A stretch of DNA of 64,000 bases from Patescibacteria group bacterium. GTDB lineage: Bacteria; Patescibacteriota; Patescibacteriia; 2-12-FULL-60-25. The notes below the pieces were generated by a model that was not told where the DNA came from, searched no databases, and was given only the letters and a program-made list of their open reading frames with translations. Position numbers and translations under genes: made by a program. Where the stretch lies: the NCBI GenBank assembly GCA_041752935.1, contig JBGSVN010000024.1:32262-96261 (forward strand), written 5' to 3'. Below are positions 5,812 to 57,779 of the stretch, in pieces. Within the stretch, counting starts at the first letter, position 1. The number at the start of each line of letters is the position of its first letter.

Positions 5812-5908
5812 ATAAAAGGTTGCCGCATCCAGGGATGCGCTAGCCTTCCCCCTGTTTTTTTATAGTCCGAAACCTTAGGGCCGAGGATTGATACTTAGCT
5901 TGTATATT

Positions 5909-6340
5909 ATGTTCATCGGAGAGTTTCATTTTACGCTTGATGACAAGGGGAGGCTGTCCGTTCCCATCGGCTATCGCACCGCGCTTAAAGATGGAGCTGT
6001 CGTAACGCGCGGGCTTGATCATACTTTGTTTCTTTATCCAAAGGAGCAATGGAGATCCTTGGCGGCCAAAATAGCCGCCTTGCCGCTCTCAACCGCGGAT
6101 ACCCGCGCTTTCGCTCGTCTGATGCTAGCCGGAGCCATGGAAGTCTCAATAGACAAATCCGGGCGTATTACCATTCCAGAATACTTGCGTATCTACGCCA
6201 GTCTTCAAAAACAGGTGGTGATATCAGGTCTTTACGACCGCTTGGAAATTTGGGATAAAGTGGCCTGGCAGGCATATGTAGCCCAAACAGAGGCTAACGG
6301 TGATCAAATAGCCGAAAGACTCGGACCAATAGGATTATGA
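5909..6340 (+). CDS. mraZ: transcriptional regulator MraZ
   Basis: MFIGEFHFTLDDKGRLSVP... and a second ...DKSGRITIPEYLR half give the duplicated SpoVT/AbrB-like MraZ pattern. The canonical N-terminus starts at ATG 5909. Confidence 0.92.
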   Translation: MFIGEFHFTLDDKGRLSVPIGYRTALKDGAVVTRGLDHTLFLYPKEQWRSLAAKIAALPLSTADTRAFARLMLAGAMEVSIDKSGRITIPEYLRIYASLQKQVVISGLYDRLEIWDKVAWQAYVAQTEANGDQIAERLGPIGL

Positions 6341-7284
6341 AGCAATCGTCAATAGATTCCGTCCATCGAGCTGTCATGGTTCGAGAGGTTATGGAATTGC
6401 TCAAGCCCCGATCAGGTGGTCGCTATTTAGATGCCACCTTAGGCGGAGGCACTCATACGGCTGAGCTTCTAAACCTGTCGGCTCCGGATGGGAAGGTGTT
6501 ATCCATGGATGTCGATGAAGCGGCTCTGAGCCGCGCGCGTCAAAAACAGCCGGCCTATGGCTCGCGCTGGAAGATCGTGGAACAGAATTTTCGTCATTTG
6601 CGTCAAACAGCCGAGGAATCGGGCTGGGCGCCCTTTGACGGGATATTGATGGACCTGGGTCTTTCTTCCGATGAGCTGGCCGATGCTTCCAAGGGCATTT
6701 CTTTTCAAGCCCAAGGCCCCTTGGACATGCGTTTGGGTCCCAAGGCTAATGAGGATGGTTTGGTCGCCGCCACGATCGTGAACCATTGGAGTGAGCGTGA
6801 GCTGACTCAACTCATCGGTTTATACGGAGAAGAACGCTACGCGCACAGAATAGCTGGAGCCATTGTTCGTCAGAGGCAAGAAAAGCCTTTGGAAACGACT
6901 TTGGAACTGGCTGAACTCATCAAGTCTTGCGTGCCCGCGGTTTACGCTCGTTCACGCATTCATCCGGCAACCAAAACATTTCAAGCACTGCGTATCGCGG
7001 TTAATGATGAACTGCAGGCCTTGCGTTCCGCTTTAAATCAAGCGGATGCGATTTTAGCGCCCGGCGGCATCTTGGTCGTGATATCGTTTCATTCACTTGA
7101 AGACCGTATCGTCAAACAAACATTCAAAAAATACCAAGGGTATCAAATTTCAAAAAAACCTGTTCGTCCCACCGAGGACGAAATAAAACATAATCCACGC
7201 GCCCGCAGCGCCAAGCTGCGCGCGGCATATAAAAACGCAACAACACAAAAATATTTATGTCACGGACTTACGCTATTGCTATGA
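6337..7284 (+). CDS. rsmH: 16S rRNA (cytosine1402-N4)-methyltransferase RsmH
   Basis: HRAVMVREV...YLDATLGGGTHT...GILMDLGLSS...HSLEDRIVK motifs are present. An ATGA overlap joins it to mraZ, the conserved mraZ-rsmH order. Confidence 0.93.
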   Translation: MKQSSIDSVHRAVMVREVMELLKPRSGGRYLDATLGGGTHTAELLNLSAPDGKVLSMDVDEAALSRARQKQPAYGSRWKIVEQNFRHLRQTAEESGWAPFDGILMDLGLSSDELADASKGISFQAQGPLDMRLGPKANEDGLVAATIVNHWSERELTQLIGLYGEERYAHRIAGAIVRQRQEKPLETTLELAELIKSCVPAVYARSRIHPATKTFQALRIAVNDELQALRSALNQADAILAPGGILVVISFHSLEDRIVKQTFKKYQGYQISKKPVRPTEDEIKHNPRARSAKLRAAYKNATTQKYLCHGLTLLL

Positions 7285-7619
7285 CCAGACCGCATCAACG
7301 TTTTGGCTTTAAGGAGCCAATCGGTCGCCAAATCCCACAAGGAGCCATGGGTTGGAGCCTTTTGGTTTTGGTGGTTTGGCTGGGTTTGGCTGGTTTATAT
7401 GTAGCGCAAATCGTGGGAGCCGCTCCACGCAGTGATAAACTGCAGAAGCTGGAAACAAGAGTCAATTATTTGCAAAGAGATATTATGGCTTTGGAAGATT
7501 CAACGGCCAAAGCATCATCCTTGCATGCCCTCGCTGAACGAGCGCAGGGACTGGGATTAATTCCGGTGCAAAATCCGGAATACATCAATCCTGCTGCCCA
7601 TGCCTTCGTTCGGCGCTAA
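7281..7619 (+). CDS. small bitopic membrane protein, FtsL-like by position
   Basis: One TM (WSLLVLVVWLGLAGLYVAQIV) is followed by a coiled-coil-like stretch. An ATGA overlap joins it to the rsmH stop. It occupies the ftsL slot of the dcw cluster. Confidence 0.45.
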   Translation: MTRPHQRFGFKEPIGRQIPQGAMGWSLLVLVVWLGLAGLYVAQIVGAAPRSDKLQKLETRVNYLQRDIMALEDSTAKASSLHALAERAQGLGLIPVQNPEYINPAAHAFVRR

Positions 7620-7636
7620 AATGGCGCTGGGATGAT

Positions 7637-7676
7637 AAATTCCTCCGGTCGCGCGTTTCCGGAGGAATTTTTTATT
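7637..7676 (+). terminator. intrinsic terminator after the ftsL-like gene
   Basis: AAATTCCTCCGG-n10-CCGGAGGAATTT followed by a T-run. Confidence 0.7.
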
Positions 7677-7748
7677 TCCCCTCCTCAGATGAGGAGGGGG
7701 TAGGGGTGGTGCTGAAGCTGCTATAACAAAAATTACAAACCACCCCAA

Positions 7749-7779
7749 CCCCTCCTTAACCAAGGAGGGGCTTTTTTTG
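7749..7779 (+). terminator. second hairpin plus T-run (CCCCTCCTT-AACC-AAGGAGGGG-CTTTTTTT)
   Basis: Perfect 9-bp stem followed by T7. It belongs to the CCCCTCCT/AGGAGGGG hairpin family, also seen at 7678-7700 and 9822-9846. Confidence 0.5.
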
Positions 7780-7790
7780 TCATGAGTTTA

Positions 7791-7817
7791 GAGATCCTGA
7801 ACTAAATTCAGGATGAC
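7791..7817. repeat. dispersed palindromic repeat family 1 (GAGATCCTGAA-n5-TTCAGGATGAC), copy 1
   Basis: Near-identical copies lie at 8804, 9723, 18216 (rc) and 18359 (rc). Confidence 0.85.
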
Positions 7818-7847
7818 ATGCCTCTTTTTGTCATCCTCGCTTAGGCA

Positions 7848-7877
7848 GGGATCCAGTTTTTAAGTTACTGGATTCCC
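7848..7877. repeat. dispersed palindromic repeat family 2 (GG(G/A)ATCCAGTTTTTAAGT(T/C)ACTGGATTCC), copy 1
   Basis: Near-identical copy at 18419-18449. A related half-site (GGAATCCAG) lies at ~16434. Confidence 0.8.
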
Positions 7878-7940
7878 GATTTAATTATTTAGCTCATTAA
7901 GCCTATCAGCTACTTGGTCGGGAATGACAATGTTGGTTTT

Positions 7941-8050
7941 GACGTAGGACGCGGGACGTTGGGTTGTCACATATTACATGCTACATGTTTTATGAATTAG
8001 GACGTTAAGTAGATGGAGAGGTTGACACAGCTCTCTATTTTTGTTTAAGT
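7941..8050 (+). promoter_or_regulatory. promoter/regulatory module copy A (GACGTAGGACG ... TTACATGCTACATGT ... GGACGTTAAGT ... TTGACA-17-TTAAGT)
   Basis: GACGTAGGACG at 7941-7951, TTACATGCTACATGT at 7974-7988, TTGACA at 8022-8027, and TTAAGT at 8045-8050 with a 17-nt spacing. It lies directly upstream of the pentapeptide gene. Confidence 0.55.
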
Positions 8051-8115
8051 GGCTAATCCTCTGCGTATTTTGGTTGCGAACATAACGCCACATGAAGAGG
8101 CGTGAGGAGGTTAAA

Positions 8116-8745
8116 ATGAGCGAAGAAAATGCACCTTCCATGACCAAGGAACAGCTGGTCGCTCTGCTTAAGAGTGGTCCTGAAGGCATCACTAGGTTCA
8201 ATGCTCTATGCGAAGAGTATCGGGATTGGACGGTGGATCTTTCGGGAGAGGACTTCTCAGGAACTGATCTCTCAGGAGTTCGGTTCTTGGAAGTGCAGCT
8301 CTTTGAAACAAACTTTTCCGGAGCCAGACTCGTTGGAGCGGATTTCTCCGGAGCCTGCCTTGAAATGGCCGACTTCTCAGATGCAAATTTGCATAAGGCA
8401 GTCCTGACCGCAGCGAATTTAGGAGAGGCATTGCTCATGAAAGCTGACCTCACTGAAGCTGCCGTGTCCGGAGCGAATTTTGAGATGGCTCACCTCGACG
8501 GAGCTAATCTTTCTAGAGCGAACTGTTACGGAGCCTGTTTTGCTAGAGCTAGCCTCAGGGGAGCGGCTCTTTGCAAGACGGATCTCTCGGAAGCAGATCT
8601 GTCTATGGCGAATATCACAGAAGCGGATCTCTCCGAAGCGAAACTTGTCAAAGCGCATCTGGCAGCAGTTTTGCATGGTCTGAAACGAGCTGATTGGCAG
8701 CGGCTCGTGGAGCAGACTGAGACCTCCATTGAATTCGCCGATTGA
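8116..8745 (+). CDS. pentapeptide-repeat protein
   Basis: Long run of A(D/N)LSxA(N/D)Lxx units (ADFSGACLEMADFSDANLHKAVLTAANLGEALLMKADLTEAAVSGANFEMAHLDGANLSRAN...). GAGGAGG SD at 8104-8110 lies 5 nt before ATG 8116. It is GC-richer than its neighbours. Confidence 0.85.
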   Translation: MSEENAPSMTKEQLVALLKSGPEGITRFNALCEEYRDWTVDLSGEDFSGTDLSGVRFLEVQLFETNFSGARLVGADFSGACLEMADFSDANLHKAVLTAANLGEALLMKADLTEAAVSGANFEMAHLDGANLSRANCYGACFARASLRGAALCKTDLSEADLSMANITEADLSEAKLVKAHLAAVLHGLKRADWQRLVEQTETSIEFAD

Positions 8746-8759
8746 CGCCGGCTCTCCCG

Positions 8760-8791
8760 CCGCGTACCAAACTGGTACGCGGTGTTTTTTT
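8760..8791 (+). terminator. intrinsic terminator after the pentapeptide gene
   Basis: CCGCGTACCA-AAC-TGGTACGCGG followed by TGTTTTTTT. Confidence 0.8.
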
Positions 8792-8803
8792 ATAGTAAGT
8801 AAT

Positions 8804-8830
8804 GAGATCCTGAAATGAATTCAGGATGAC
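8804..8830. repeat. palindromic repeat family 1, copy 2
   Basis: GAGATCCTGAAATGAATTCAGGATGAC. Confidence 0.85.
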
Positions 8831-8840
8831 AGGGGTGGTT

Positions 8841-8980
8841 ACGCGGGACGTTGGGTTGTTTGTTACATGCTACATGTTTTGTGGATCAGGACGTTATGGA
8901 CGTTAAGTACGTGAGAGGACGCTATGTACGCTAGATATGTGATAAGGGGGTTGACAAAGCATAAAAAGTATGTAAGTCTT
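8841..8980 (+). promoter_or_regulatory. promoter/regulatory module copy B
   Basis: ACGCGGGACGTTGGGTTGT (as in copy A), TTACATGCTACATGT at 8863-8877, ACGTGAGAGGACG at 8909-8921, TTGACA at 8951-8956, and TAAGT about 16 nt downstream. Confidence 0.55.
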
Positions 8981-8984
8981 GGTT

Positions 8985-9607
8985 CACCCCAAGTTGGTTT
9001 TTCACCAGGGCGGTAAGAGCAGTACCACTGCCGCCTCACAAAGATGAAAGGAGGTCGATCAAATGACCAAGTATCTTTCTGGTGAGTGAGGGTATATGGA
9101 CTGAACCCTGAACTGCGAACAAAAAAACAAAAACCATCAAACTCAAAAGAAAGGAAAATGTGAACGGTGTGATGGTTCTGGCGCAGAGGTTTGCCAGGCT
9201 CGGGAGTACGCTTAGGTGTACGTCCCAAGGTCTTCGTCCACCTACGGACGACGGTTATGGCACACGGGTCTGTCAGCCCCCGTGGACCGCACATAAGTAG
9301 CGCGAGGTGCCTCCTCGCGAGCAGCTCATAGGAAGCTGCAACCTGACCGCCTGTCACACGTGGCAGACGGCCCTCGGGCCTAATTCATCCTCCCGATCAA
9401 CCCCGCTCCTTCGTGACAGAACAAAAACGGCATCACGACCGACCCAGCACTCCATTGCGACTGAACGAGTGCCGGCCAGGTCAACGGCCCAGTTTTACAC
9501 TGTCAATGAGGGTATCGCGCAAGCATATACGCAAGCGCGAGGGGTACCGGCGCCAAGCGGGCGCCAGCACAGCTGACACGGACGCGACTCGCGTCCTCTT
9601 TTTTTTG
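8985..9607 (+). ncRNA. candidate large structured non-coding RNA (unclassified)
   Basis: Bounded by the module-B promoter and an intrinsic terminator. It is GC-rich relative to host DNA, carries at least 12 short perfect GC hairpins, and has stops in all + frames. The 5' end is estimated from promoter position only. Confidence 0.45.
9581..9607 (+). terminator. intrinsic terminator of the candidate RNA unit
   Basis: GACGCG-ACT-CGCGTC followed by CTC and T8. Confidence 0.8.
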
Positions 9608-9722
9608 TTATGAATTTTTTTAGTTAAATCTCAACGGCATGTCGTTCGGTCGCCCAAGGCGCACCCCGTGACGCGTACGTCGGACTCGCCCAACATGATT
9701 GTGGTTTTAATGATTTAGTAAC

Positions 9723-9749
9723 GAGATCCTGAACTAAATTCAGGATGAC
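9723..9749. repeat. palindromic repeat family 1, copy 3
   Basis: GAGATCCTGAACTAAATTCAGGATGAC. The flanking GGTTTTAATGATTTAGTAA is also shared (as rc) with the copy at 18216. Confidence 0.85.
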
Positions 9750-9857
9750 GGAGGGGAGGCTGGGATGAAGGGCTGGCCTTGTAATGGTATGGTTTGGCTT
9801 ATATGTTTCAACACCACCCCCTCACCCCTCCTCATCTGAGGAGGGGCATAGATCCCA

Positions 9858-9928
9858 GACGTAGGACGTTAAGAACGTGAGAGGACGTGATGTACGCGAG
9901 GTACGTAAGTCCGTTAATATGTTATAAT
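9858..9928 (+). promoter_or_regulatory. promoter/regulatory module copy C with extended -10 TGTTATAAT
   Basis: GACGTAGGACG at 9858-9868, ACGTGAGAGGACG at 9875-9887, and TGTTATAAT at 9920-9928, only 8 nt (GAGCGCAT) before ATG 9937. Confidence 0.55.
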
Positions 9929-9936
9929 GAGCGCAT

Positions 9937-10332
9937 ATGCTGAAAAGCACGGGGGCGCTTGCGCGATTACTGTTCATTGATTTGTTAGGTAGCTTGGCTT
10001 GGTTTCCTATTTGGTGGTACACCACGGGTCTTAAAAAAATGATCAGCTGGTGTATTGATGGTTTGCATTATCGGATTAAACAATATTCCTTCAAGATTTG
10101 GTTGAAGAATTTTTTCGTGCCCATGTACGGACAATATGACTGGCAGGGGAGGGCTATCAGTGTTTTTATGCGATTGGTGGTTATCATCGGCCGGGGAATC
10201 GCTTTGGCGGTCGAAGGAGTAATTTATTTTGTGCTGATTTTATGTTGGATGATAATTCCGCCCTTGGCTTTCTTTTTAGCTTTGCAAAATATTGTTTCCG
10301 GCATGTTTATGTCGCAAATGCCATCCTTATAA
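9937..10332 (+). CDS. small integral membrane protein, unknown function
   Basis: 131 aa with about 3 hydrophobic helices. Its stop is 3 nt before the Clp-like gene, so the two are probably co-transcribed. Confidence 0.6.
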   Translation: MLKSTGALARLLFIDLLGSLAWFPIWWYTTGLKKMISWCIDGLHYRIKQYSFKIWLKNFFVPMYGQYDWQGRAISVFMRLVVIIGRGIALAVEGVIYFVLILCWMIIPPLAFFLALQNIVSGMFMSQMPSL

Positions 10333-10335: not shown

Positions 10336-13056
10336 ATGTCTGAAGATAACAACCTGCCGGCCGTGCCTCAAGCAATTGTGTGTTCGGAATGTAATGGCGA
10401 CCCAAGAGGCTCTCGCAGCTGTGCTTTGTGCAGAGGAGCCGGAGTGGGCATTCCTTCAGAGCAAGGTTTTTTGGTTTGGGCGACGCCCGTGGATGATTTG
10501 ACCATTGCCGGCCGGAAATTACGTCTGCAAATCAATGCCATCCTGCATCTGGCTCTCATGACGGTGATAGTTTTGTTGACGATTGTCTTCTTTTTTCAAA
10601 CCATACCCAATTTTACGATTGCGGACGTGCAAACTTTGGATTTTTGGACCCGGGGTTATTGGTTTGTGACTTTGTTGTATATTGCTATTGTCTTGGGAGC
10701 TTATTTTGTTTTTAGAATGAGCGAGTTTACGGCGCCGGCCAAGCTTCTGCCTCATTGGATCAATAAGCCGGAACAGACAAAACCCGAGGAAGTTAAGTAT
10801 TCTTTGGAAGTATCGGCTTATTATTCTCCGGCCGCCATGGAAGTGGTGGAAAAAGCTTACAAGCTGGCTAAAGAGTTAGGTTTGATTGAAATTACGCCAG
10901 AAGTATTATTCGCCTCCATTCTAACCAGCTCGGACGGTTCGTTGTTCATGGTGCGTCTGGGCATCTCTTTTGAGAAAATCAAAGAACCTTTGGTCAGATT
11001 GATGCTCCGCGGAGCGCAAGGCAAGCCGCCTATCAGCTTTTCCCGGGAAGCCAAACGCGTGTTGGCTTCAGCTTTTGTTTTAGCCGACCAAACCAATCGC
11101 AAGTATGTCACGCCCATGGAAATATTTTTGCAGGCTTTTAATGAGAGTTTGAAACTGCAAGAATTGTTGGACAGCTTGGGTTTTCCCTTTAATCACGTTG
11201 CTCATGTGGCCGAATGGGTGTTGCTGCATTCCAAACTCAAAGAAGATCAAGATCGTTTTGTGCAATTAGCCAGGCTTAAACCCAAGTCGGTTATGAATCG
11301 GGCTATGACTGCTCGGCAAACTTCTTTGCTCGACCGGTTTAGCGAGGATCTGACCTTGCTGGCCAGGCAGGGCTATTTATCGCCCATGATCGGCAACTCA
11401 AGAGTTATGGACGAGTTGATGAGAGGCTTGGAGAGCGGTCAGCAAGGCGTGGTTTTGGTGGGCGAATCAGGAGCCGGCAAAGCCGCGGTGGTTGAACAAC
11501 TGGCCCGGCAAATGGTGGAAGAGGATGTGCCCGAATTATTGTTTGATAAAAGATTGGTGTCCGTAAATTTGGCGCAAGTGGTGGCGGCCGGAGATCCGGG
11601 TTTAGCAGCTGAAAGATTGTTGGCCATGCTCCACGAAGTGGCTATGTCAGGCAACATTGTTTTGGCTTTGTATGGCATAGAGGCTTTGGTAGGCGCGGGC
11701 AGCGGACCCATGGATCTGGCTGAAACTTTGGCCAGTGAAATGGACAAGGGCTATTGTTTGCTGGTAGCTACCAGTACGCCTCGGGCTTGGACTCAATTCC
11801 TGGAAAACAGATCTTTGGGCAAAAAAATGGTTAAAGTGGCGGTGCCTGCGGCTGATGCCGAACAAACCATTAGAGTATTGATGGCTAAATCCGGGAGCAT
11901 CGAATACAAGAATAATGTCTTTTTTTCGTACGCGGCCTTGGAAAAGGCCACCAGTTTGGCTTTGCGTTATTTGCACGATGTGGCTCCGCCTTTGAATGCT
12001 TTGAATGTGATTCGTGAAGCCGCGGTTTTGGCGCATAAAGAAAGAGGTGACAGGACTTTTGTGACGGCTGAAGATGTATCCAAGATCATTCATGATAAAA
12101 CCAATATTCCGGTGGAAATGGTAACTGAGGCTGAATCCGAAAGATTATTGAATCTGGAAGAAAGAATGCATGGGCGTATCGTGGGGCAGGAAGAAGCCGT
12201 GGTAGGTGTGGCGCGGGCTATCAGGCGGGCGCGAGCCGATTTAAGGGAAGGTAAACGGCCTATCGCTAACTTTTTGTTTCTGGGTCCGACCGGTGTGGGT
12301 AAAACCGAATGTGCTAAAACTTTAGGGCAAGAATATTTTGGCGATGAAAACGCCATGGTGCGTTTGGACATGTCCGAATATCAAGATAAAAACTCGGTGG
12401 CCCGCATGATCGGCATGCCCGGAGATGAACGCGGCGGTTTGTTGACCGAAGCAGTGCGCAAAAAACCTTTTACCATTGTTTTGTTGGATGAAATCGAAAA
12501 AGCCCACCCTGATATTTTAACTTTGTTTTTGCAGGTTATGGATGACGGCCGCTTGACGGACGGCGTAGGCCGAACCGTGGATTTTACCAATACCATAGTT
12601 ATCATGACTTCCAATGCGGGTACGTCATATATACAAAGCGCGGTCAGTGAAGGTGAGCCCATGGAACGCATTAAAACAGCTTTATTGGAAAGAGAATTAA
12701 AAGGCATATTCAGACCCGAATTCTTGAATCGTTTCGATGGCATAATCGTGTTTAAGCCTTTGACACTCGACGAAGTGGTGCAAATCGCTTGGTTGATGTT
12801 AAATCGCGTAGGGCGTAATCTGGAGGCCAAGGGCATTAACTTCAGAGCTGAAGACCGGGCCGTAGAAGATTTGGCTGAAGCAGGTTTTGATCCGGCTTTT
12901 GGAGCGCGTCCTTTAAGGCGTGTTATTCAAGAACGCGTGGAAACGCCTTTGGCTGATTTATTGTTACAAAATCAAGCTGCTAGGCGCGATACCATAGTTT
13001 TGAATGACGATGGTTCGTTTAAGGTGGACAAAGCGCCGGATATTTTTTCCGATTAG
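10336..13056 (+). CDS. membrane-anchored Clp/Hsp100-family AAA+ paralog (Zn-finger - 2 TM - Clp_N - degenerate D1 - D2)
   Basis: Features in order: CSECNGDPRGSRSCALCRGAG; two TM helices; two Clp_N-like repeats; D1 Walker A GESGAGKAAV with the Walker B position reading LALYGIEALVGAG; D2 GPTGVGKTE, VLLDEIEKAHPD, DDGRLTDGVGRTVDFTNTIVIMTSN and RPEFLNRFD. Confidence 0.85.
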   Translation: MSEDNNLPAVPQAIVCSECNGDPRGSRSCALCRGAGVGIPSEQGFLVWATPVDDLTIAGRKLRLQINAILHLALMTVIVLLTIVFFFQTIPNFTIADVQTLDFWTRGYWFVTLLYIAIVLGAYFVFRMSEFTAPAKLLPHWINKPEQTKPEEVKYSLEVSAYYSPAAMEVVEKAYKLAKELGLIEITPEVLFASILTSSDGSLFMVRLGISFEKIKEPLVRLMLRGAQGKPPISFSREAKRVLASAFVLADQTNRKYVTPMEIFLQAFNESLKLQELLDSLGFPFNHVAHVAEWVLLHSKLKEDQDRFVQLARLKPKSVMNRAMTARQTSLLDRFSEDLTLLARQGYLSPMIGNSRVMDELMRGLESGQQGVVLVGESGAGKAAVVEQLARQMVEEDVPELLFDKRLVSVNLAQVVAAGDPGLAAERLLAMLHEVAMSGNIVLALYGIEALVGAGSGPMDLAETLASEMDKGYCLLVATSTPRAWTQFLENRSLGKKMVKVAVPAADAEQTIRVLMAKSGSIEYKNNVFFSYAALEKATSLALRYLHDVAPPLNALNVIREAAVLAHKERGDRTFVTAEDVSKIIHDKTNIPVEMVTEAESERLLNLEERMHGRIVGQEEAVVGVARAIRRARADLREGKRPIANFLFLGPTGVGKTECAKTLGQEYFGDENAMVRLDMSEYQDKNSVARMIGMPGDERGGLLTEAVRKKPFTIVLLDEIEKAHPDILTLFLQVMDDGRLTDGVGRTVDFTNTIVIMTSNAGTSYIQSAVSEGEPMERIKTALLERELKGIFRPEFLNRFDGIIVFKPLTLDEVVQIAWLMLNRVGRNLEAKGINFRAEDRAVEDLAEAGFDPAFGARPLRRVIQERVETPLADLLLQNQAARRDTIVLNDDGSFKVDKAPDIFSD

Positions 13057-18089: not shown

Positions 18090-18200
18090 TTTGATTTAAC
18101 GTACCTAGCGTCCTCTCACGTCCATAACGTACATAACGTCCTACGTCGCTCGTCCCACGGGGTGTCGTTCGCGAACGACTACCCCACGTCCTACGTCAGG
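18090..18200 (-). promoter_or_regulatory. promoter/regulatory module copy D (minus orientation, upstream of dnaB)
   Basis: The rc of ACGTGAGAGGACG lies at 18099-18111. The rc of GACGTAGGACG lies at 18127-18137 and 18187-18197. Confidence 0.5.
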
Positions 18201-18215: not shown

Positions 18216-18242
18216 GTCATCCTGAATTCATTTCAGGATCTC
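18216..18242. repeat. palindromic repeat family 1, copy 4 (rc orientation)
   Basis: GTCATCCTGAATTCATTTCAGGATCTC. Confidence 0.85.
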
Positions 18243-18358: not shown

Positions 18359-18385
18359 GTCATCCTGAATTCATTTCAGGATCTC
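18359..18385. repeat. palindromic repeat family 1, copy 5 (rc orientation)
   Basis: GTCATCCTGAATTCATTTCAGGATCTC. Confidence 0.85.
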
Positions 18386-45770: not shown

Positions 45771-45805
45771 AACTCCCTGGCTAACCCCAGGGAGTTTTTG
45801 TTTTC
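45771..45805 (+). terminator. intrinsic terminator of the rplM-rpsI unit, marking the last host-like sequence
   Basis: AACTCCCTGG-CTAACC-CCAGGGAGTT followed by TTTGTTTT. The composition changes immediately downstream. Confidence 0.8.
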
Positions 45806-45906
45806 CTGGGCCGATTTATGTAGATGTGCTCCCTCCTCGCAAGGTCGAGCCGTGCCGGCGGTCAATCCGGTTGAGGACTCAATTCATTCTTAGAGGACAC
45901 ATCTAT

Positions 45907-46743
45907 ATGCTCAAAATCATCAATACCGGCGATCCGTCGGTTAAGCCGCCCCTCGTCATGCTTGTGTACGGGGAAGGCGGGGTAGGGAAGTCGACGTTCG
46001 CCGCAACGGCTCCAAAGCCGCTCATGGCGGACTGCGAGAACGGTTCGAAGTATTTCGGTCTGCGCGGCATCAAGCTCGACGTTGCTCATATCGAGAAATG
46101 GTCAGACATGCGCGAGTACACCGAAGCCCTCAAAAAAGAGGGGTACGAAACAGCGGTTATCGATCCCATCGGGGAACTCATGGAAAAGCTCATGCGCCAC
46201 ATGGTGGCCATCGGGGACTCCAAGCTCATTCAGAAAGACGGCTCTCCCAGCCAAGCTGGTTGGGGATGGCTCCGTAAGACGATGCGCGATTATGTGAAGG
46301 TGCTCCGGGACTCCGGCATGCACGTTCTTTTGGTCGCTCACGTGGATGACAAGCCTGACGAAGATCGGGTTCTTTTGCGTCCGCTCATCACGACCAAAGT
46401 TTCGAAGGACATCGTCAACATGGTCGACGTGGTCGGGTACATGACTGTCGTGCAAACGGCTGACGGCGAATCCAAGCGGGTTATTTTCGTCGACCCTTCA
46501 TCGGACAAGTTTACGGCCAAAGATCGCACGGGCCAGCTCGGAAAAATCATCGAGCCGGATTTCTCGAAGATCATCAAAGCCGTTCATGGCACTGCGAACT
46601 ACGCGTGGTCTAAGAAGCCAGTCGAGGAACCAAAGGCCGAAGCTCCAGCCGAAGCGGTTCGCCCGCCTCAGCGCACGAAACCAGTCGTCGACCCTAATTC
46701 AGCCTTTGAAGCTGCGCGATCCAAAGTCGCCGCAGCGGTCTAA
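45907..46743 (+). CDS. Sak4-like / RecA-fold phage AAA ATPase (recombination module)
   Basis: LVMLVYGEGGVGKSTFAA (Walker A) and HVLLVAHVDD (Walker B-like). The size and first-in-module position are typical of phage Sak4-type proteins. Confidence 0.65.
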   Translation: MLKIINTGDPSVKPPLVMLVYGEGGVGKSTFAATAPKPLMADCENGSKYFGLRGIKLDVAHIEKWSDMREYTEALKKEGYETAVIDPIGELMEKLMRHMVAIGDSKLIQKDGSPSQAGWGWLRKTMRDYVKVLRDSGMHVLLVAHVDDKPDEDRVLLRPLITTKVSKDIVNMVDVVGYMTVVQTADGESKRVIFVDPSSDKFTAKDRTGQLGKIIEPDFSKIIKAVHGTANYAWSKKPVEEPKAEAPAEAVRPPQRTKPVVDPNSAFEAARSKVAAAV

Positions 46744-46747
46744 TCAT

Positions 46748-47527
46748 ATGGCTGAAAAAATCATCGAGAAGCTGTACGACGGTAACGTATCGCTCGAATT
46801 CTTACCCGACTCCCATCGATATCGCATCGAGGGATCGAAAGAATATCTGCCATCAGTTACCGCTTGCACGGGAATCGTCGACAAGTCGCGTGTGCTTATT
46901 CCATGGGCAGTCGGTTTGGCTGAAAAGCACATTCGCGCATTCCTTGAATCCAACACCGGACCGTTTTCCATTGAGGAGATCATTCCGGTTATCGAAGAGG
47001 CGACGCGCCAACATCAGCTGAAGAAGGAAGAAGCCGCATCCATTGGTGGCATGGTTCACGCGTACGCCGAGGCGTTCGCTCTGGCCGTCATCGGGAAGAA
47101 GGATGTGCCGGAGGTTCCAGAGGACGCGGACGAACGTGTACGCGCCGGAATCAATGCATTCCTGAATTGGTTTGTCTCAAACGACGTGCAGTTCCTGCAC
47201 GCCGAGAAACTTGTCTATTCTCCCACCCATGGTTTCGCCGGACTGGTCGATGCCGTGGCGAACGTGAATGGTCAGCGCACGCTTATCGATTACAAAACGT
47301 CCAAAGGTGTCTATACCGAAATGCGTTATCAGGTCGCCGCGTATTGTCTCGCATTCGAAGAGGAATACGGCAAGTGTTTGGATGGAGCCCTGATTTTGCA
47401 CTTCGATAAAGAAACGGGCATTTGTAATCCGCACCCTCTTGCCCAGGACGAACTTGTGAAAGATTCCTCCGCCTTCCTCGCATGTCTCGCACTTAAGAAA
47501 CGTGAACGCGAATTAGCCAAAGCCTGA
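46748..47527 (+). CDS. PD-(D/E)XK family exonuclease (phage RecB/Cas4-like)
   Basis: GFAGLVDAV...TLIDYKTSKGVY is a D...(D/E)xK core. The gene is adjacent to the Sak4-like ATPase. Confidence 0.6.
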   Translation: MAEKIIEKLYDGNVSLEFLPDSHRYRIEGSKEYLPSVTACTGIVDKSRVLIPWAVGLAEKHIRAFLESNTGPFSIEEIIPVIEEATRQHQLKKEEAASIGGMVHAYAEAFALAVIGKKDVPEVPEDADERVRAGINAFLNWFVSNDVQFLHAEKLVYSPTHGFAGLVDAVANVNGQRTLIDYKTSKGVYTEMRYQVAAYCLAFEEEYGKCLDGALILHFDKETGICNPHPLAQDELVKDSSAFLACLALKKRERELAKA

Positions 47528-47528
47528 T

Positions 47529-47804
47529 ATGGAAAAGATCTACACATACGATGACCTTCAGGCGAAGGCGCATTCCCTCTCCATGTCACTAGCAAAAGAT
47601 GGCGAGCTGTTCAAAGCGACGATCATGCAGACCGCATCTTCAATTCTTGCAAATGAAGAAGTGGGTGACAGATACGGTAAGACTCAGCTTAGTCAGACAA
47701 TTGCAATTCTCGAGTGGAGAAAGGCGATTGAGGGAGCTAAGGATTCCCTCATCGTTGAGCTTGAGGATACCAATTCTGATTCACTCGCTGACGAGACGTT
47801 CTAA
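47529..47804 (+). CDS. phage hypothetical protein
   Basis: 91-aa ORF whose ATG lies 1 nt after the upstream stop. Same strand and tight packing. Confidence 0.5.
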   Translation: MEKIYTYDDLQAKAHSLSMSLAKDGELFKATIMQTASSILANEEVGDRYGKTQLSQTIAILEWRKAIEGAKDSLIVELEDTNSDSLADETF

Positions 47805-47816
47805 CCCTCCAACCCT

Positions 47817-48062
47817 ATGTCACGAAAAATCGGAGCCTTATGGCTCAAAGAAACCAAGGACGGGAAAAAGTATTTCTCTGGCGTGCTTGAAGATATGCGC
47901 GGCGAAATCCGCATCGCTGTCTTCAAGAATGATCGCAAGGAGAAAGAAAATCAGCCGGACTATCAAATCATTGTTTCCGAGGAACGGCGGGAACAGCGCG
48001 AGTCGTCTGATCAGACATCCCAGGCGACCGACCAGGTCAATTTGGATGACATCCCGTTTTGA
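47817..48062 (+). CDS. compact ssDNA-binding-like protein (DUF736-like N-terminus) ending in the SSB C-terminal tip motif DDIPF
   Basis: The N-terminus is IGALWLKETKDGKKYFSGVLE...IRIAVFKNDRKEKENQPDYQIIV. An acidic linker follows, and the terminal ...NLDDIPF* compares with the bacterial SSB tip D-D-D-I-P-F. Confidence 0.5.
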   Translation: MSRKIGALWLKETKDGKKYFSGVLEDMRGEIRIAVFKNDRKEKENQPDYQIIVSEERREQRESSDQTSQATDQVNLDDIPF

Positions 48063-48067
48063 TCCGT

Positions 48068-48352
48068 ATGCATGAACAACCCGCATACGCACCACGTCCG
48101 CAGGCGGCACCGTCCCGCCGCCTCGGACGAACGGAACAGGCGGGTAACGTCCGTCTGATGCAGAAACGCAAAGCGGGGCAGATCCGCTCCCTCGACTGGG
48201 TCTTGAACGTGGTCGAACGGATGCGCGTGCGAGAGAAGAGCGATTTTGCCCGTACGGCATTCGAGGACGTGATTCGTACTGTTTCACGCCAACGCGAAAG
48301 AGAAATCCGCGACTTGGCCACGCTAGACGAAGCCGAGCGTGAACTAGCCTGA
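48068..48352 (+). CDS. phage hypothetical protein (Arg-rich)
   Basis: ORF in the same-strand array. The start is ambiguous (48059 or 48068). Confidence 0.4.
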   Translation: MHEQPAYAPRPQAAPSRRLGRTEQAGNVRLMQKRKAGQIRSLDWVLNVVERMRVREKSDFARTAFEDVIRTVSRQREREIRDLATLDEAERELA

Positions 48353-48359
48353 CCCACAT

Positions 48360-48998
48360 ATGGGAAAAGTGTCGTATCCCTTCGCCGCATTACCCAACCA
48401 AATCTGTCGCGGAGGCCATGGTCCGGTTCATATCGCCGTACTGGCAATCCTGCTCAGTCACGGCCGGACTTCGGCTTCCGCGCAGACACTGGCGCGTGAG
48501 ATCGGATGCGACCGCAAGAGCGTTTTCAAATCTTTGAAATACTGGCGCGAGGAAGGTCCCAAGTTCGGGATACATCTTCGGACCGGGGAACGTAAGGGTT
48601 GTACCACCGTGATCGAGGTCGACATCGTTACATGCCACACCAGTACCGAAAACGGTACTGACAACCATGTGGATAACGGAAATGAGCCGTACCGAAAACA
48701 GAACGCGGCAATACCGCAAACGGAACGGGCACCCGTACCGAAAACGGCACACAAAGAAGAACCCGTAAGAAGACCCCTGAAGAATTACCCCCTACCCCCT
48801 CAAGGGGGAGTGTTGACTCCATTCGTGCCAAGGCAAAGACGCTCACGCGAAGATCCGAAACAAAAGAAGCCACGACCGTATCTCGAGGGTGACCTCGCGC
48901 ACCTCGACGAATCACGCGGAGTCTGGCGAGTCAGAATCCACACCGGAGAGTGGGTCGACTACGGCGGCAACGTAAAGCAGAACCTCATCTGGAAATGA
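48360..48998 (+). CDS. winged-helix/HTH DNA-binding protein (possible replication initiator or regulator)
   Basis: The N-terminal ~80 aa (ILLSHGRTSASAQTLAREIGCDRKSVFKSLKYWREEG) look like a wHTH. The rest is low-complexity. Confidence 0.5.
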   Translation: MGKVSYPFAALPNQICRGGHGPVHIAVLAILLSHGRTSASAQTLAREIGCDRKSVFKSLKYWREEGPKFGIHLRTGERKGCTTVIEVDIVTCHTSTENGTDNHVDNGNEPYRKQNAAIPQTERAPVPKTAHKEEPVRRPLKNYPLPPQGGVLTPFVPRQRRSREDPKQKKPRPYLEGDLAHLDESRGVWRVRIHTGEWVDYGGNVKQNLIWK

Positions 48999-49192
48999 CT
49001 ATGCGAACCGCCACGAAAGAAATTCATGCAGTCGCCAGCGAGCACGACTATCGACCACCGACTCAAAGCCAGCGGTTACGTTCCACGCTCTACCGTCTCT
49101 GGGAAAGATCCGGAACAGACACCACGTTTGACGATTGGTACCGAGACCGGATGGACCGAATCATCTCGCGCTTGCAGCGATTGCTCGATTGA
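48995..49192 (+). CDS. phage hypothetical protein
   Basis: An ATGA overlap joins it to the upstream stop. 65 aa. Confidence 0.4.
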   Translation: MTMRTATKEIHAVASEHDYRPPTQSQRLRSTLYRLWERSGTDTTFDDWYRDRMDRIISRLQRLLD

Positions 49193-49206
49193 ACGTTTCA
49201 CAACCT

Positions 49207-49386
49207 ATGCCGATTGAAATCGTCGCACACTTCCGGACGAAGGACAGCGCCGATAGGTTCGCCGAGAGCGCGAACAAACGGCACTTCGAATCCATCGCGG
49301 TTGAACGGCGAAGGAGTGACGACCTTTGGGAAGTCAGGCTCGTCCCGAAGCGAAAGCTTCGCGTATTCAGACTTCCAACTACATGA
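49207..49386 (+). CDS. phage hypothetical protein
   Basis: 59-aa ORF (MPIEIVAHFRTKDSADRFAESANKRHFESIAVERRR...). Confidence 0.4.
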   Translation: MPIEIVAHFRTKDSADRFAESANKRHFESIAVERRRSDDLWEVRLVPKRKLRVFRLPTT

Positions 49387-49390
49387 ACCC

Positions 49391-49834
49391 ATGCTCATTA
49401 AACCGAAATCAGAAAACATCGATGCCCTGTCGATCATCGTCATGGCTGAGGATGGCCGCGCTTTCGTTCTACGGCGGAGGCGCGGTGCGGCCCACGTGAC
49501 CTTGGAAGACATGCGCCGCTGGGCCGAGAAGCGATTGTGGCTCGCTGACGGCGTACCGGACCGCATGACAGGACTCATTCAAAATCTTGGAGAAGCGTAT
49601 GAACAATATCTCTACTGCAAGTCACAAGAGTTAGAGATCTCAGCCGATCAATGGTTGAACGTCTCAGACAAGCTTGCCGGCCAGCTGTCAGACATCATTG
49701 AGCGCGGGACCAAGATGCCGGAAGTGGTCACCGTCTACGTTCCGAACCGAGCAGCTCCCTTGCCTCCAAGTCATCGCTCCCGTCGCAATTCCAAACCGCC
49801 TGCAGCTGCCGCTCCGGTTCTCGTTCGTGGATAA
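49391..49834 (+). CDS. phage hypothetical protein
   Basis: 147-aa ORF with a Pro/Arg-rich C-terminus. No motif was recognised. Confidence 0.45.
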   Translation: MLIKPKSENIDALSIIVMAEDGRAFVLRRRRGAAHVTLEDMRRWAEKRLWLADGVPDRMTGLIQNLGEAYEQYLYCKSQELEISADQWLNVSDKLAGQLSDIIERGTKMPEVVTVYVPNRAAPLPPSHRSRRNSKPPAAAAPVLVRG

Positions 49835-49862
49835 CCAGCCAAATTTAAGACTTCGTGCGCCT

Positions 49863-50207
49863 ATGCTTGTCCGCATGAAGGAAACGGAAATCCAACGGTC
49901 CATTCTTGAGAATCTGCGCTGGCGCGGAATCCTAGCGTATCGCTGCCAGCCTGCACCCGTCCCGATCAGGAACGGGAATCGCATCGTCGGATTCCGACGC
50001 GCCGACGCATTCAATGTCGGCATGCCAGACATCGTGTGCGTGATTGCCGGGCGCTACATCGGTATCGAAGTTAAATCCGAGACGGGACGCCAACGCGCCG
50101 AACAGCTCGACTGGCAGCGCAAGATCGAGAAGGCCGGAGGGACGTATGTGCTCGCACGTTCGTGGAAAGATGTTGAACAAGCAATCCTATGCAATACAAA
50201 TCCATAA
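49863..50207 (+). CDS. VRR-NUC domain nuclease
   Basis: EIQRSILENLRWRG...GMPDIVCVIAGRYIGIEVKSETGRQRAEQLDWQRKIEKAGGTYVLARS carries the PD...E-x-K and Q..W pattern of VRR-NUC. Confidence 0.7.
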   Translation: MLVRMKETEIQRSILENLRWRGILAYRCQPAPVPIRNGNRIVGFRRADAFNVGMPDIVCVIAGRYIGIEVKSETGRQRAEQLDWQRKIEKAGGTYVLARSWKDVEQAILCNTNP

Positions 50208-51415
50208 AAATATCCGATCTCAAACCCGCCGAATATAACCTACGTTCCATTTCCGAGCGTGAACTTGCGAAGCTTACGGAATCCATCCGCACGTTCGGTT
50301 TCGTTGATCCGGTTATCGTGAACAAAGACAGAACGGTTATCGGCGGCCACCAGCGCATTAAAGCGGCGGAACGGCTTGGCATGGCTGACGTGCCGTGTAT
50401 TCGCGTGGATATTGCCAAAGATCGCGAGAAGGCATTAAACCTCGCCCTCAACCGTATTTCCGGTGAATGGGACATGGATTTGCTGGCCAAGCTCTTGCAA
50501 GAGATGGATGCGGAATCTCGTCGTTTGTCTGGCTTTGACGAATCGGAAATCACCGAGGCGCTGAACCGTTTGCTGAAGCAGCCGGTCGAAGACGAATACG
50601 ATCCGGTGCTTCCGGAGGATCCAAAGACGAAACTCGGTGATATCTACCAGATCGGCGACCACCGCTTGCTCTGCGGGGATGCCACGAATCCGGATTGCTT
50701 TATGCGCCTACTCGATGGCGTGAAGGCCGATATGTGTTTCACAGATCCGCCGTACAACATGGGGTACATGGGAGGCTCGGGCAAACGTCGCAAGGAAATT
50801 GCGAATGACAAGATGCCACGCGAAGCGTTCCTTTCGTTTCTTCGTAAGGTGATGGCGAACCTTGTCTCGAATGTTTCAGGTGCGTTTTACGTCTGCATGT
50901 CATACGGCGAGCTTCATTCGCTCTGGCAAGCGTTTACGGATGCTGGCGGGCACTGGCAGGGATACATCGTTTGGGCGAAGCAGCGCTTTACCTTGGGCGG
51001 ATCCGATTACCAACACCAATCCGAACCTATACTCCACGGACTCTCCGCCGAAGATGCGGCGAAGCTGGAAGAATCCGAAGCGGATTCCGAAGCATTGCCT
51101 ATTCTGTATGGCTGGACGCGTCATGCGTGGTATGGCGGACGCAAGCAGGGCGATGTGTGGTTTTTCGACCGTCCAATGAAGTCACCGGAGCATCCAACCA
51201 TGAAGCCGGTCCGGCTCTGCGCCAAGGCTATCGTGAATAGCTGTCCTACGGGCGGAATCGTACTTGATTCATTCGGCGGTTCAGGTTCCACGCTCATTGC
51301 CGCCGAACAGGTCGGACGGCGCTGTTTCATGATCGAAATGGATCCCGGTTACTGCGACGTCATTGTCGACCGCTGGGAGAAGTTCACAGGTAAAAAGGCA
51401 AGCAAAATCGAATGA
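50189..51415 (+). CDS. ParB-like nuclease domain fused to a DNA (N6-adenine/N4-cytosine) methyltransferase
   Basis: ParB-N is ISDLKPAEYNLRSISERELAKLTESIRTFGFVDPVIVN..IGGHQRIKAA. The MTase motif IV is FTDPPYN and motif I is VLDSFGGSGSTLIAAEQVGRRCFMIE (beta-class order). Confidence 0.85.
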   Translation: MQYKSIKISDLKPAEYNLRSISERELAKLTESIRTFGFVDPVIVNKDRTVIGGHQRIKAAERLGMADVPCIRVDIAKDREKALNLALNRISGEWDMDLLAKLLQEMDAESRRLSGFDESEITEALNRLLKQPVEDEYDPVLPEDPKTKLGDIYQIGDHRLLCGDATNPDCFMRLLDGVKADMCFTDPPYNMGYMGGSGKRRKEIANDKMPREAFLSFLRKVMANLVSNVSGAFYVCMSYGELHSLWQAFTDAGGHWQGYIVWAKQRFTLGGSDYQHQSEPILHGLSAEDAAKLEESEADSEALPILYGWTRHAWYGGRKQGDVWFFDRPMKSPEHPTMKPVRLCAKAIVNSCPTGGIVLDSFGGSGSTLIAAEQVGRRCFMIEMDPGYCDVIVDRWEKFTGKKASKIE

Positions 51416-51461
51416 TTTTAGGTTATTAGGTTTTTAACCTAGAAAACCTAGGCACTTATTT

Positions 51462-51839
51462 ATGGCCGGACTCGCAAGCAAACGGAACGGGAAGAAAGGC
51501 GGCCGTCCGAAGGGAACGGTCAGCTTTGAGACGCGCATCCAGAAGCAGATCAAGCGCAAGCTTCTTTCGGCTGTAAGCAAGGAGTTCAAGCCCATCATGG
51601 AAGCGATTCTTGATTCAGCCAAAGGACTCACGCTCTACGTTCCAGGCAAAGACGGCAGGCGCGACAAGGTGTACCGCCGAAGCCCGAACGTCGACATGCT
51701 GAAGTACATCATGGACCAAGTCGCGGGCAAGGCGTCGACGCCTATCGAAGTCGAAGGGGAGCTCGAGGTCGGTAACCTGCAGGAATTTATCTATGCCGCG
51801 TATGAAGCCTCGGAACACAAGCGACGCGGACGTTCTTGA
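51462..51839 (+). CDS. putative small terminase subunit
   Basis: 125 aa with a basic N-terminus (KRNGKKGGRPKGT). It sits immediately upstream of, and overlaps, the large terminase gene. Confidence 0.45.
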   Translation: MAGLASKRNGKKGGRPKGTVSFETRIQKQIKRKLLSAVSKEFKPIMEAILDSAKGLTLYVPGKDGRRDKVYRRSPNVDMLKYIMDQVAGKASTPIEVEGELEVGNLQEFIYAAYEASEHKRRGRS

Positions 51840-53178: not shown

Positions 53179-53215
53179 CGGCGTTTTCGGAGACTCGTTC
53201 CGCGATACTCATGCC

Positions 53216-55315: not shown

Positions 55316-55379
55316 TTGTGGATAATCCAGCCTTTTAACCCATGCGTCCCTCTACGCTTATCACCATACGGCTCACGCT

Positions 55380-56225: not shown

Positions 56226-56235
56226 TAACCCACCT

Positions 56236-57420: not shown

Positions 57421-57425
57421 TCCCT

Positions 57426-57770
57426 ATGGGTACTTACAAGGTCCTGAAACCCATCGGCTGGTCGGGCCGGCGCGAGCGGGGAGAGGTGCTCGAGATGACC
57501 GAAGCGGAAGCGTCCGCTTTCGGTCCCGATTATCTCGAACCCGTCGTGCCCAAGACCGACGATGAGGACTCCAGCAGCGAACTTCCGACAAAGGAAGAGA
57601 TCGCCAAGCTGAAGAAGCCTGAAGTCACCGCGGTGCTCGAGAAACTCGGTATCACGTTCGATGAATCCGCTTCCGTCGGAGAGTTGCGCGACTTGCTCGC
57701 GGAGAGCCTGCCTCAAGCCCAAGAGGACGGCGATAACAAACCAAAGACCGACGAGGGCGCGTCGGCATAA
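57426..57770 (+). CDS. phage protein with a SAP/HeH (Rho_N-like) motif
   Basis: KKPEVTAVLEKLGITFDESASVGELRDLLAE, with acidic linkers. Confidence 0.5.
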   Translation: MGTYKVLKPIGWSGRRERGEVLEMTEAEASAFGPDYLEPVVPKTDDEDSSSELPTKEEIAKLKKPEVTAVLEKLGITFDESASVGELRDLLAESLPQAQEDGDNKPKTDEGASA

Positions 57771-57779
57771 CCCATTGCT

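Follow-up and report, generated by a model that had tools for sequence, protein, structure and literature searches.

What is encoded in the GC-rich, hairpin-filled DNA at 8951-9606? It lies on the + strand of a stretch of 64,000 nucleotides (nt) from a Patescibacteria genome, which we call the window, between a pentapeptide-repeat gene and a membrane-protein gene. An earlier note, made from the letters of the DNA, had described it as a transcription unit of about 620 nt with a promoter, a terminator and no credible open reading frame (ORF), and had proposed a large structured RNA gene. Our analysis leads to a similar view: With a probability of roughly 70%, the unit would be a self-contained gene for a large structured non-coding RNA (ncRNA) of Patescibacteria, undescribed and narrowly distributed. 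The proposal has gained from the comparison with three homologues, which carry many compensatory changes and a covarying pseudoknot; homologues lacking such changes had been named in the earlier note among the findings which would refute it.

Predicted transcription unit and homologues

The unit may be divided in four parts:

8951-8979 (+): predicted promoter, with -35 box TTGACA (8951-8956) and a weak -10 box AAGTCT (8974-8979), 17 nt apart; the 3' end of the spacer is TGT (TG at 8971-8972)
8986-9159 (+): 5' leader, lineage-specific, with a hairpin at 9010-9036, a Shine-Dalgarno (SD) sequence at 9046-9054, an eight-codon ORF at 9063-9089 and an A/C-rich linker at about 9118-9159
9160-9579 (+): conserved structured core, about 420 nt, with a 5' domain (P1a-P8) and a 3' domain (P9-P16)
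9580-9606 (+): intrinsic terminator, with stem GGACGCG/CGCGUCC at 9580-9596, loop ACU and a tail of UCU plus U7

A scan of one genome per GTDB species, using the neighbouring membrane protein as query, gives 69 syntenic loci. When these are searched with the element (nhmmer and blastn), only three match, L005, L007 and L019. In all three the element lies between ftsL and the membrane-protein gene, on the same strand. L005 is 91% identical over the full length and L007 is 73% identical over 9175-9607; L019 is weak in a single-sequence search and clear with a profile of the four sequences. Between the window and L005 the element is 90.5% conserved, the flanking genes 90.3% and 85.0%.

The case for a promoter consists of a perfect -35 box, a weak -10 box extended by TG at a 17-nt spacing, and the same layout in all four homologues: TTGAC, the spacing and TGT are kept in L005, L007 and L019 in the four-way alignment. 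Transcription would start near 8986. The TTGACA box is found at 8951-8956, as the earlier note had read it. Its attribution to a reused promoter module does not hold: The promoter is the element's own, present in L007 and L019, which lack the module. At the other end, a terminator scan lists the stem at 9580 (seven pairs, six of them G-C), so that the clean intrinsic terminator seen previously is confirmed, with its U-tract reaching 9606. In L019 this stem reads GGGCGCA/UGCGCCC, two compensatory pairs.

The extent of about 620 nt is correct from promoter to terminator, but the conserved part covers only about 9160-9579. The 5' leader, of about 170 nt, aligns well with L005 only and is partly alignable with L007 and L019. 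The interior is indeed GC-richer (0.55 across 9001-9500, versus about 0.37-0.51 for most of the first 45 kb). Nevertheless, to speak of an AT-rich genome was an overstatement: The host has about 44-45% GC, the neighbouring rsmH gene reaches 0.51-0.54, and 45.8-64 kb is occupied by a prophage with 55% GC.

Fold of the conserved core

We have built a model with 19 helices and one pseudoknot (120 pairs) by comparing independent minimum free energy (MFE) folds with segments delimited by anchors. Its predicted parts are:

9178-9183/9192-9197 (+): P1a, in the window, L005 and L007, deleted in L019
9202-9211/9216-9226 (+): P1b, in the window, L005 and L007, deleted in L019
9235-9239/9246-9250 (+): P2
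9251-9256/9285-9290 (+): P3, encloses the invariant junction AUGGCA (9257-9262) and P4
9263-9268/9279-9284 (+): P4, hairpin
9272-9277 (+): 5' strand of the pseudoknot PK1, GUCAGC, in the P4 loop, pairs with 9572-9577
9301-9307/9313-9319 (+): P5, hairpin
9321-9325/9335-9339 (+): P6, hairpin
9347-9370 (+): P7, hairpin, different sequence in all four genomes, always 6-10 base pairs (bp)
9374-9396 (+): P8, UCGGG/CCCGA, with a 13-nt loop C-M-UAAU-N5-CU; stem and most of the loop invariant
9401-9404/9541-9544 (+): P9, encloses a long irregular arm and hairpin P15
9408-9414/9506-9512 (+): P10, arm, C-G replaced by G-C
9415-9419/9500-9504 (+): P11, arm
9423-9426/9493-9496 (+): P11b, arm
9429-9431/9487-9489 (+): P12, arm
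9437-9440/9479-9482 (+): P13, arm, A-U replaced by G-C
9444-9452/9467-9475 (+): P14, arm, sequence replaced in each lineage
9516-9520/9535-9539 (+): P15, hairpin inside P9
9549-9565 (+): P16, hairpin GGCGCC-AAGCG-GGCGCC, absent in L019
9572-9577 (+): 3' strand of PK1, GCUGAC, two bases 5' of the terminator stem

P1a and P1b are 100% paired, with four double-change pairs in P1b. In P3 (ACGGUY/GAYCGY) one pair is G-C, G.U or A-U, depending on the genome. The arms of P4 read CACGGG/CCCGUG in the window, CACGGUGA/UCACUGUG in L007 and CUCUGGAA/UUCCGGGG in L019. P5 is CGCGAGG/CCUCGCG in the window and GCAUGAGG/CCUUGUGC in L019, while P6 goes from GCAGC/GCUGC to GCGGC/GCCGC, an A-U pair being replaced by G-C. 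P7 contains five double-change pairs: Its arms are CCGCCUGUCA/UGGCAGACGG in the window, CGUCGG/CCGACG in L007 and GCGACC/GGUCGC in L019. PK1 has six of six pairs in all four genomes, with two compensatory changes in L019 (GCCAGU/ACUGGC). P8 is invariant and thus uninformative for or against pairing. Besides lacking P1a, P1b and P16, L019 has a longer P14.

Conservation is also found outside the helices. The internal loops AUCAC, GAC, CCA and AACG are kept in the arm of the 3' domain, and several blocks are invariant in the four genomes: GGACGACGRUYAUGGCAC, CUCGGGCMUAAU-N5-CUCCCGA, AUCAC and GCCARGYCAAYGGCC. Invariant blocks 15-24 nt long are shared by genomes whose flanking protein is only 64% identical.

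Twelve hairpins had been listed in the earlier note, and nine are kept or compensated in the homologues (9202-9226, 9235-9250, 9263-9284, 9301-9319, 9321-9339, 9351-9366, 9447-9472, 9549-9565 and the terminator). The other three are unsupported. The hairpin at 9010-9036 lies inside the lineage-specific leader and is weakened in L005; the 5' arm of the GGCC..GGCC hairpin at 9369-9380 is not kept in L007, and the invariant UCGGG/CCCGA at 9374-9396 replaces it; the hairpin at 9412-9437 clashes with conserved long-range helices.

The stretch 8980-9607 has a more stable MFE than dinucleotide shuffles, with z = -3.7 on the + strand. For the core without its terminator, the z values of the + and - strands are -3.67 and -2.96 in the window, -3.47 and -2.02 in L007, and -2.13 and -0.08 in L019. 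The + strand is assigned from the promoter, the U-tract terminator and this larger stability excess on + in all three lineages tested. RNAalifold, run on the plain alignment, gives 94 pairs, 14 of them with compensatory double changes. In our 120-pair model, 89.5% of the cells are paired in a plain MAFFT alignment, unfitted to structure. Double changes are found in 21 of the 120 pairs, versus 7.3±2.0 in column shuffles, and none of 500 shuffles reaches 21. When the partners are slid by 1-3 columns, pairing is only 33-39%, with 0-6 double changes.

A covariance model of the 5' domain (R1, P2-P8), made from the window, L005 and L007 with L019 left out, matches L019 at an E-value of about 6e-13 and nothing else in 1.15 Mb. 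L019 forms 41 of the 43 R1 pairs; 16 differ from the window, and 14 of these still pair, nine by a double change. As for the 3' domain, independent folds of each genome have the same architecture, which L019 also shows when P10 is enforced, within 1.3 kcal/mol of its MFE. The closest pair, window and L005, differ by 17 substitutions in 223 unpaired columns and by changes in 9 of the 120 pairs: Four stay paired, two gain and three lose pairing, and two of these losses, in P7 and P14, come from a mismatch which moves by one position. A search for stacks which pair in all four rows gives two outside the nested model, PK1 and CGAGG/CCUCG; the latter shares bases with P5 and with the flank of P8, and seems to be an alternative pairing.

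Other possible contacts have been discarded. We have omitted from the model a closing helix P1 which would join GUGA..GUG (about 9160-9171) to CAC..UGAC (about 9568-9577): It has only three or four pairs in an ambiguous register and competes with PK1. No tertiary partner for the five variable nt of the P8 loop covaries consistently, as judged by eye. The complementarity of 9425-9440 to rsmH (7074-7089, 14 of 16 positions) has little weight, about 0.7 such matches being expected by chance according to our estimate. GUGAUG..CUGA could be read as a box C/D or K-turn, but L005 does not conserve it, and the bases of CUGA covary as Watson-Crick pairs in PK1.

How would such an RNA work? A conserved sigma-70-like promoter and a covarying intrinsic terminator bracket about 620 nt, and we infer that a discrete, stable RNA of about 0.6 kb is made and acts in trans. 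Its 3' 420-450 nt have a conserved fold in two domains with about 19 helices, a 5' row of hairpins (P1a-P8) and a long irregular 3' arm closed by P9; PK1, pairing the P4 loop with six bases before the terminator, would tie both ends together. A row of hairpins, a long arm with asymmetric conserved loops and a pseudoknot clamp suggest a scaffold RNA or something like a ribozyme, unlike antisense small RNAs or leaders. We tentatively favour a compact protein-binding scaffold within a ribonucleoprotein, a role to which we give somewhat less than even odds; a ribozyme or a self-assembling RNA comes next, and seems rather doubtful. The functional surfaces may be the invariant unpaired AUGGCA, the UAAU..CU loop of P8 and the internal loops AUCAC/AACG and GAC/CCA. 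The element is presumably non-essential, because close relatives lack it at this site. A more ambitious version is speculative: The element might be the founding member of a new class of large, pseudoknotted, "ornate" RNAs specific to Patescibacteria (CPR bacteria), a mobile cassette reaching from promoter to terminator in a hotspot of the cell-division cluster, with an intrinsic biochemical activity (ribozyme or self-assembling particle) instead of a regulatory role by base pairing.

Several points weigh against a structured RNA gene. The case for transcription is made of sequence signals (the -35 box, the TG-extended -10 box and the terminator), and a consensus promoter scan, for which the -10 hexamer is too weak, made no call at 8951. 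With four sequences, which represent three lineages and include a pair with 91% identity, significance of the R-scape type is out of reach, and the fold model is derived from the same four sequences used to score it. The model of the 3' domain, R2, finds L019 at its correct position, but with a low score (9.1 bits, E 0.011 in 2 kb). G.U cells (23) and A.C cells (18) are indecisive on the strand by themselves. PK1 depends mainly on its two compensations, because a 6-bp complement to a loop is common by chance in a 450-nt RNA. Finally, no conserved partner gene hints at a function, and a scaffold or ribozyme mechanism is what we infer from the fold.

Coding capacity, rival explanations and known RNA families

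A decayed protein gene, or the mRNA of a small protein, would have some features in its favour. A perfect SD sequence (GAAAGGAGG, 9046-9054), kept with its ATG (9046-9065) in L005, precedes an ORF of eight codons (ATG..TGA, MTKYLSGE, 9063-9089); the AUG of AUGGCA, at 9257, is invariant; and the + frame starting at 9160 has one stop across 9160-9576. The ORF inventory of the earlier note (89 and 66 amino acids (aa) on +, 164 aa on -) and its coordinates for the SD sequence and MTKYLSGE all check out. Nevertheless, no frame is conserved across genomes. Indels between homologues are 1, 2 or 4 nt long, not multiples of three; one of them, a 1-nt insertion in L005, lies inside candidate ORFs and truncates both 46-aa ORFs of the window. 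Matches between stop-free segments are short and change frame from genome to genome. SD sequence and mini-ORF occur in the window and L005 only, the mini-ORF being absent in L007 and L019, and its last three codons have two non-synonymous changes and one synonymous change in L005. The peptides starting at the invariant AUG have 24, 14, 15 and 17 aa, and are unrelated after three or four residues (by hand from the alignment). None of the unit's ORFs has a Pfam match, and the concatenated six-frame translation of 9040-9612 finds nothing at E <= 0.01 among 5.8 billion predicted proteins. This empty search means that no annotation pipeline called an ORF over homologous regions, and it disfavours a decayed gene; the earlier note had asked for frameshift-corrected homology, and we have found none in the six frames. 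Its statement that there is no credible ORF agrees with these results. Compensatory changes track helices, not codons. As a comparison of sequences, all this shows a unit which is not protein-coding, and we consider a coding origin very improbable.

Two minor coding possibilities have been rejected. With a non-standard code or selenocysteine, the SD frame would have two in-frame TGA, and one + frame a single TAG, but all the genes nearby are translated without difficulty by table 11, and the frames do not persist in L005, L007 or L019. A DnaJ-like CxxCxGxG peptide, KCERCDGSG (+, about 9155-9180), lacks both a start codon and a Pfam match, and L005 does not conserve it.

Two other explanations accept the hairpins and deny an independent RNA. 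The element could be a cis-regulatory leader or attenuator, like a riboswitch or T-box, of the operon which contains the genes for the membrane protein and a ClpB-like protein, with the terminator as expression platform. It is always immediately upstream of that operon and co-oriented with it, it ends in an intrinsic terminator with a PK1 strand abutting it, and in L007 and L019 this terminator ends only about 40 nt from the start codon. However, the element has its own promoter, the downstream gene has another (TGnTATAAT, between the terminator and the ATG in the window, L007 and L019), and in the window and L005 the two are separated by 330 nt which include the repeated module. Five relatives (L111, L114, L006, L021 and L022) keep the operon without the element. 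No antiterminator which tracks the changed terminator stem of L019 was seen by eye, no systematic search having been made, and a length of 450-620 nt far exceeds that of known leaders: It is three to five times that of a T-box or riboswitch leader, none of which gives an Rfam match. A leader is less likely than a trans-acting RNA, because the operon is provided with a promoter and is found in relatives which lack the element; we consider it unlikely. The other explanation is a remnant at the DNA level, cargo of the repetitive extragenic palindromic (REP) or miniature inverted-repeat transposable element (MITE) kind, whose hairpins act in DNA or are fortuitous, with no functional RNA. The recombination-prone hotspot, flanked by repeated palindromic modules, the patchy distribution and the indecisive counts of G.U and A.C would fit. 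On the other hand, the modules are missing in L007 and L019, where the element still has the same promoter and terminator. There are no terminal inverted repeats, and the element occurs only once in the window and once in each 20-kb locus searched. Its long-range helices and pseudoknot covary over hundreds of bases, which fits RNA rather than cruciform DNA, and the stability excess is asymmetric, favouring the + strand. A remnant thus appears quite improbable, if less so than a coding origin, and a trans-acting structured RNA is still the preferred reading.

Does this RNA belong to a known family? With the 4227 models of Rfam 15, which include OLE, ROOL, GOLLD, HEARO, RNase P, tmRNA, SRP, 6S, group I and II introns and riboswitches, there are no matches at gathering thresholds in the whole window and seven related loci, in agreement with the earlier note, which had been unable to match it by eye to RNase P, tmRNA, SRP or 6S. 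In E-value mode (window, L007 and L019), only scattered matches appear, far below threshold, to unrelated families which differ from genome to genome. In the literature searched there is no report of such an RNA, or of any structured RNA specific to Patescibacteria. We have filed the element as a putative new RNA family because no known family recognizes it and no description was found in that literature.

The closest likeness is with large RNAs such as OLE (RF01071), ROOL and GOLLD. In common are the size class (about 450-620 nt), the independent gene, the large number of helices, the high conservation of nucleotides in loops and junctions, long-range or pseudoknot contacts, a restricted phylogenetic range and the lack of known biochemistry; the behaviour as accessory DNA is shared with ROOL and GOLLD. 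However, there is no covariance-model match even in E-value mode, and the phylum, Patescibacteria, is a different one. The element lies outside the prophage and away from tRNAs, with four examples versus hundreds to thousands. In contrast to OLE, no gene of the oapA type adjoins it: The neighbours (ftsL, the 131-aa membrane protein, the ClpB-like gene and mraY) were checked by Pfam, with no Oap-specific search. RNase P RNA (RF00010, RF00011) is similar in length, high GC, multi-domain fold and long-range pseudoknot. Its P4 strands, GGAAAGUCCGG / ACAGAA..CGGCUUA, are universally conserved. By eye, against the consensus, they are absent from the element, which has no Rfam match either; the sole resemblance is local, 'GACAGAAC..ACGGCAU', and the comparative model puts these strands in different helices. 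The element is also absent at this site in close relatives, and its invariant motif was found on only three contigs in a metagenome scan, which fits an accessory RNA, not an essential housekeeping one. The RNAs of HEARO (IscB omega) and TnpB omega are also pseudoknotted ncRNAs of a few hundred nt in mobile or variable DNA, but no IscB, TnpB, nuclease or recombinase gene adjoins the element in any of the four loci, and there is no Rfam match.

Few bacterial RNAs are both large and folded in a complex, conserved way. To our knowledge, almost every such class has proved biochemically unusual: RNase P, OLE, group I and II introns, the IscB omega RNA and the cages formed by ROOL and GOLLD. Non-coding RNA has received very little attention in Patescibacteria, a largely uncultivated group with tiny genomes. 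A pseudoknotted RNA of 450 nt as optional cargo in a streamlined genome suggests a role in specific conditions, for example host interaction, phage defence or stress. The structure model, the conserved motifs and the four sequences may serve as a seed for covariance-model searches and for probing. A new large structured RNA in an understudied, genome-reduced phylum should be of interest to RNA specialists, even if the family is tiny (three lineages).

A variable site in the cell-division gene cluster

The window belongs to a Patescibacteria genome. The 131-aa membrane protein next to the element has a counterpart with 99% identity in 'Parcubacteria group bacterium ADurb.Bin192' (L005), and its relatives are labelled Uhrbacteria, Magasanikbacteria or Patescibacteria. 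The element sits within the cell-division (dcw) gene cluster:

5888-6340: mraZ, dcw cluster
6337-7284: rsmH, dcw cluster
7257-7619: ftsL-like gene, dcw cluster
8092-8745: pentapeptide-repeat gene, between the ftsL-like gene and the element
9937-10332: gene for the 131-aa membrane protein, downstream of the element
10336-13056: ClpB-like gene, after the membrane-protein gene
after the ClpB-like gene: Glycos_transf_4 gene, taken as mraY

The junction between ftsL and the membrane-protein gene (7620-9936; L005-L023, L111-L115) has different cargo in nearly every relative. The element has no copy at this site in seven close relatives (L111, L113, L114, L115, L006, L021 and L022), which makes it accessory here, cargo in a variable hotspot. 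The membrane proteins of L113 and L114 are 92-94% identical to that of L007, and that of L111 is 89% identical to that of the window; all three loci lack the element. In L006, L021, L022, L111 and L114, the membrane-protein gene is directly 3' of ftsL. The junction holds a pentapeptide gene in L011, and unrelated ORFs in L008, L009, L018, L113 and L115. The alternative cargo ORFs (129-459 aa) have no PADLOC match and no Pfam match above threshold, so we have not retained the idea of a defence island. In L012 (9408-10000), the same junction holds 593 nt of AT-rich, ORF-poor, very hairpin-dense DNA (z = -6.5), with a palindrome of the GGTCGTTCGCGAACGACACCCC type, also found at about 18150-18180 in the window; this stretch is not homologous to the RNA element.

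Wider searches have given no more members. A single metagenome scan with the invariant motif CTCGGGCNTAATNNNNNCTCCCGA found again only the L005, L007 and L019 contigs, and 17 further matches were not confirmed by nhmmer. Models R1 and R2 detect no further homologue in 75 sources (1.15 Mb), and blastn in distant mode, run against 50,697 phage and 72,556 plasmid records, finds nothing similar. In a scan of viral contigs the invariant P8 motif has no matches, and a second motif of 16 bases has 17, none confirmed by nhmmer. None of the relatives retrieved by way of the membrane-protein family has the element. Look-ups of the exact proteins of the flanking genes lead to contigs which end at the repeated module.

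In the window and L005, the cassette is flanked by this intergenic module, with palindromic core GAGATCCTGAAnTnAATTCAGGATGAC. The pentapeptide cassette is missing from L005. The module does not occur in L007 and L019, where the element promoter comes immediately after the ftsL terminator, and the promoter of the membrane gene after the element terminator: The conserved unit is therefore exactly promoter, RNA and terminator. The copies of the module, and the array of short repeats which forms part of it, are as follows:

7793-7817, 8806-8830, 9725-9749 (+) and 18216-18240, 18359-18383 (-): repeated module, GAGATCCTGAAnTnAATTCAGGATGAC core, five copies in the window
8889-8931 (+): five KDACGY repeats with 9-10 bp spacing, just upstream of the -35 box, operator-like in appearance, outside the conserved RNA unit

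The module, whose flanks are conserved too, brackets the pentapeptide and RNA cassettes and is also present in the interval separating dnaB from a permease gene; assemblies of short reads in public databases are interrupted by it. In appearance it is a REP/MITE-type repeat, which could drive cassette exchange. The same array of five KDACGY repeats appears again at 9864-9906 (+) and 18104-18146 (-), and is absent upstream of the element in L007 and L019. These arrays (GGACGT / GTACGT / GGACGC), spaced by about one helical turn, precede the RNA promoter, the operon of the membrane protein and the ClpB-like protein, and dnaB. All three resemble operators of a single DNA-binding regulator; the mraZ gene lies 3 kb upstream.

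ARAGORN detects no tRNA or tmRNA gene in the 64-kb window. Directly past rpsI, at 45800-64000, there is a prophage of about 18 kb with 52-61% GC, versus about 44% for the host:

51793-53178: large terminase
53108-55315: portal fused to a Mu-F domain
56236-57420: major capsid
59951-60919: tail tube
62844-63899 (-): Fic/DOC gene

It also encodes an AAA_24 protein and a ParB-N6/N4 methylase. Its GC resembles that of the RNA element, yet we have found no sequence similarity between them.

The two genes downstream of the element have some peculiar features. In the ClpB-like AAA+ protein (906 aa), CxxC...CxxC motifs and hydrophobic segments precede the Clp_N domain, which suggests a membrane-anchored disaggregase, conserved beside mraY in these genomes. 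In the membrane-protein gene, an extended -10 box TGnTATAAT ends 6-9 nt 5' of the ATG (9919-9939 in the window; just before position 10001 in L007 and L019). Such a short distance implies a leaderless, or nearly leaderless, mRNA in this lineage.

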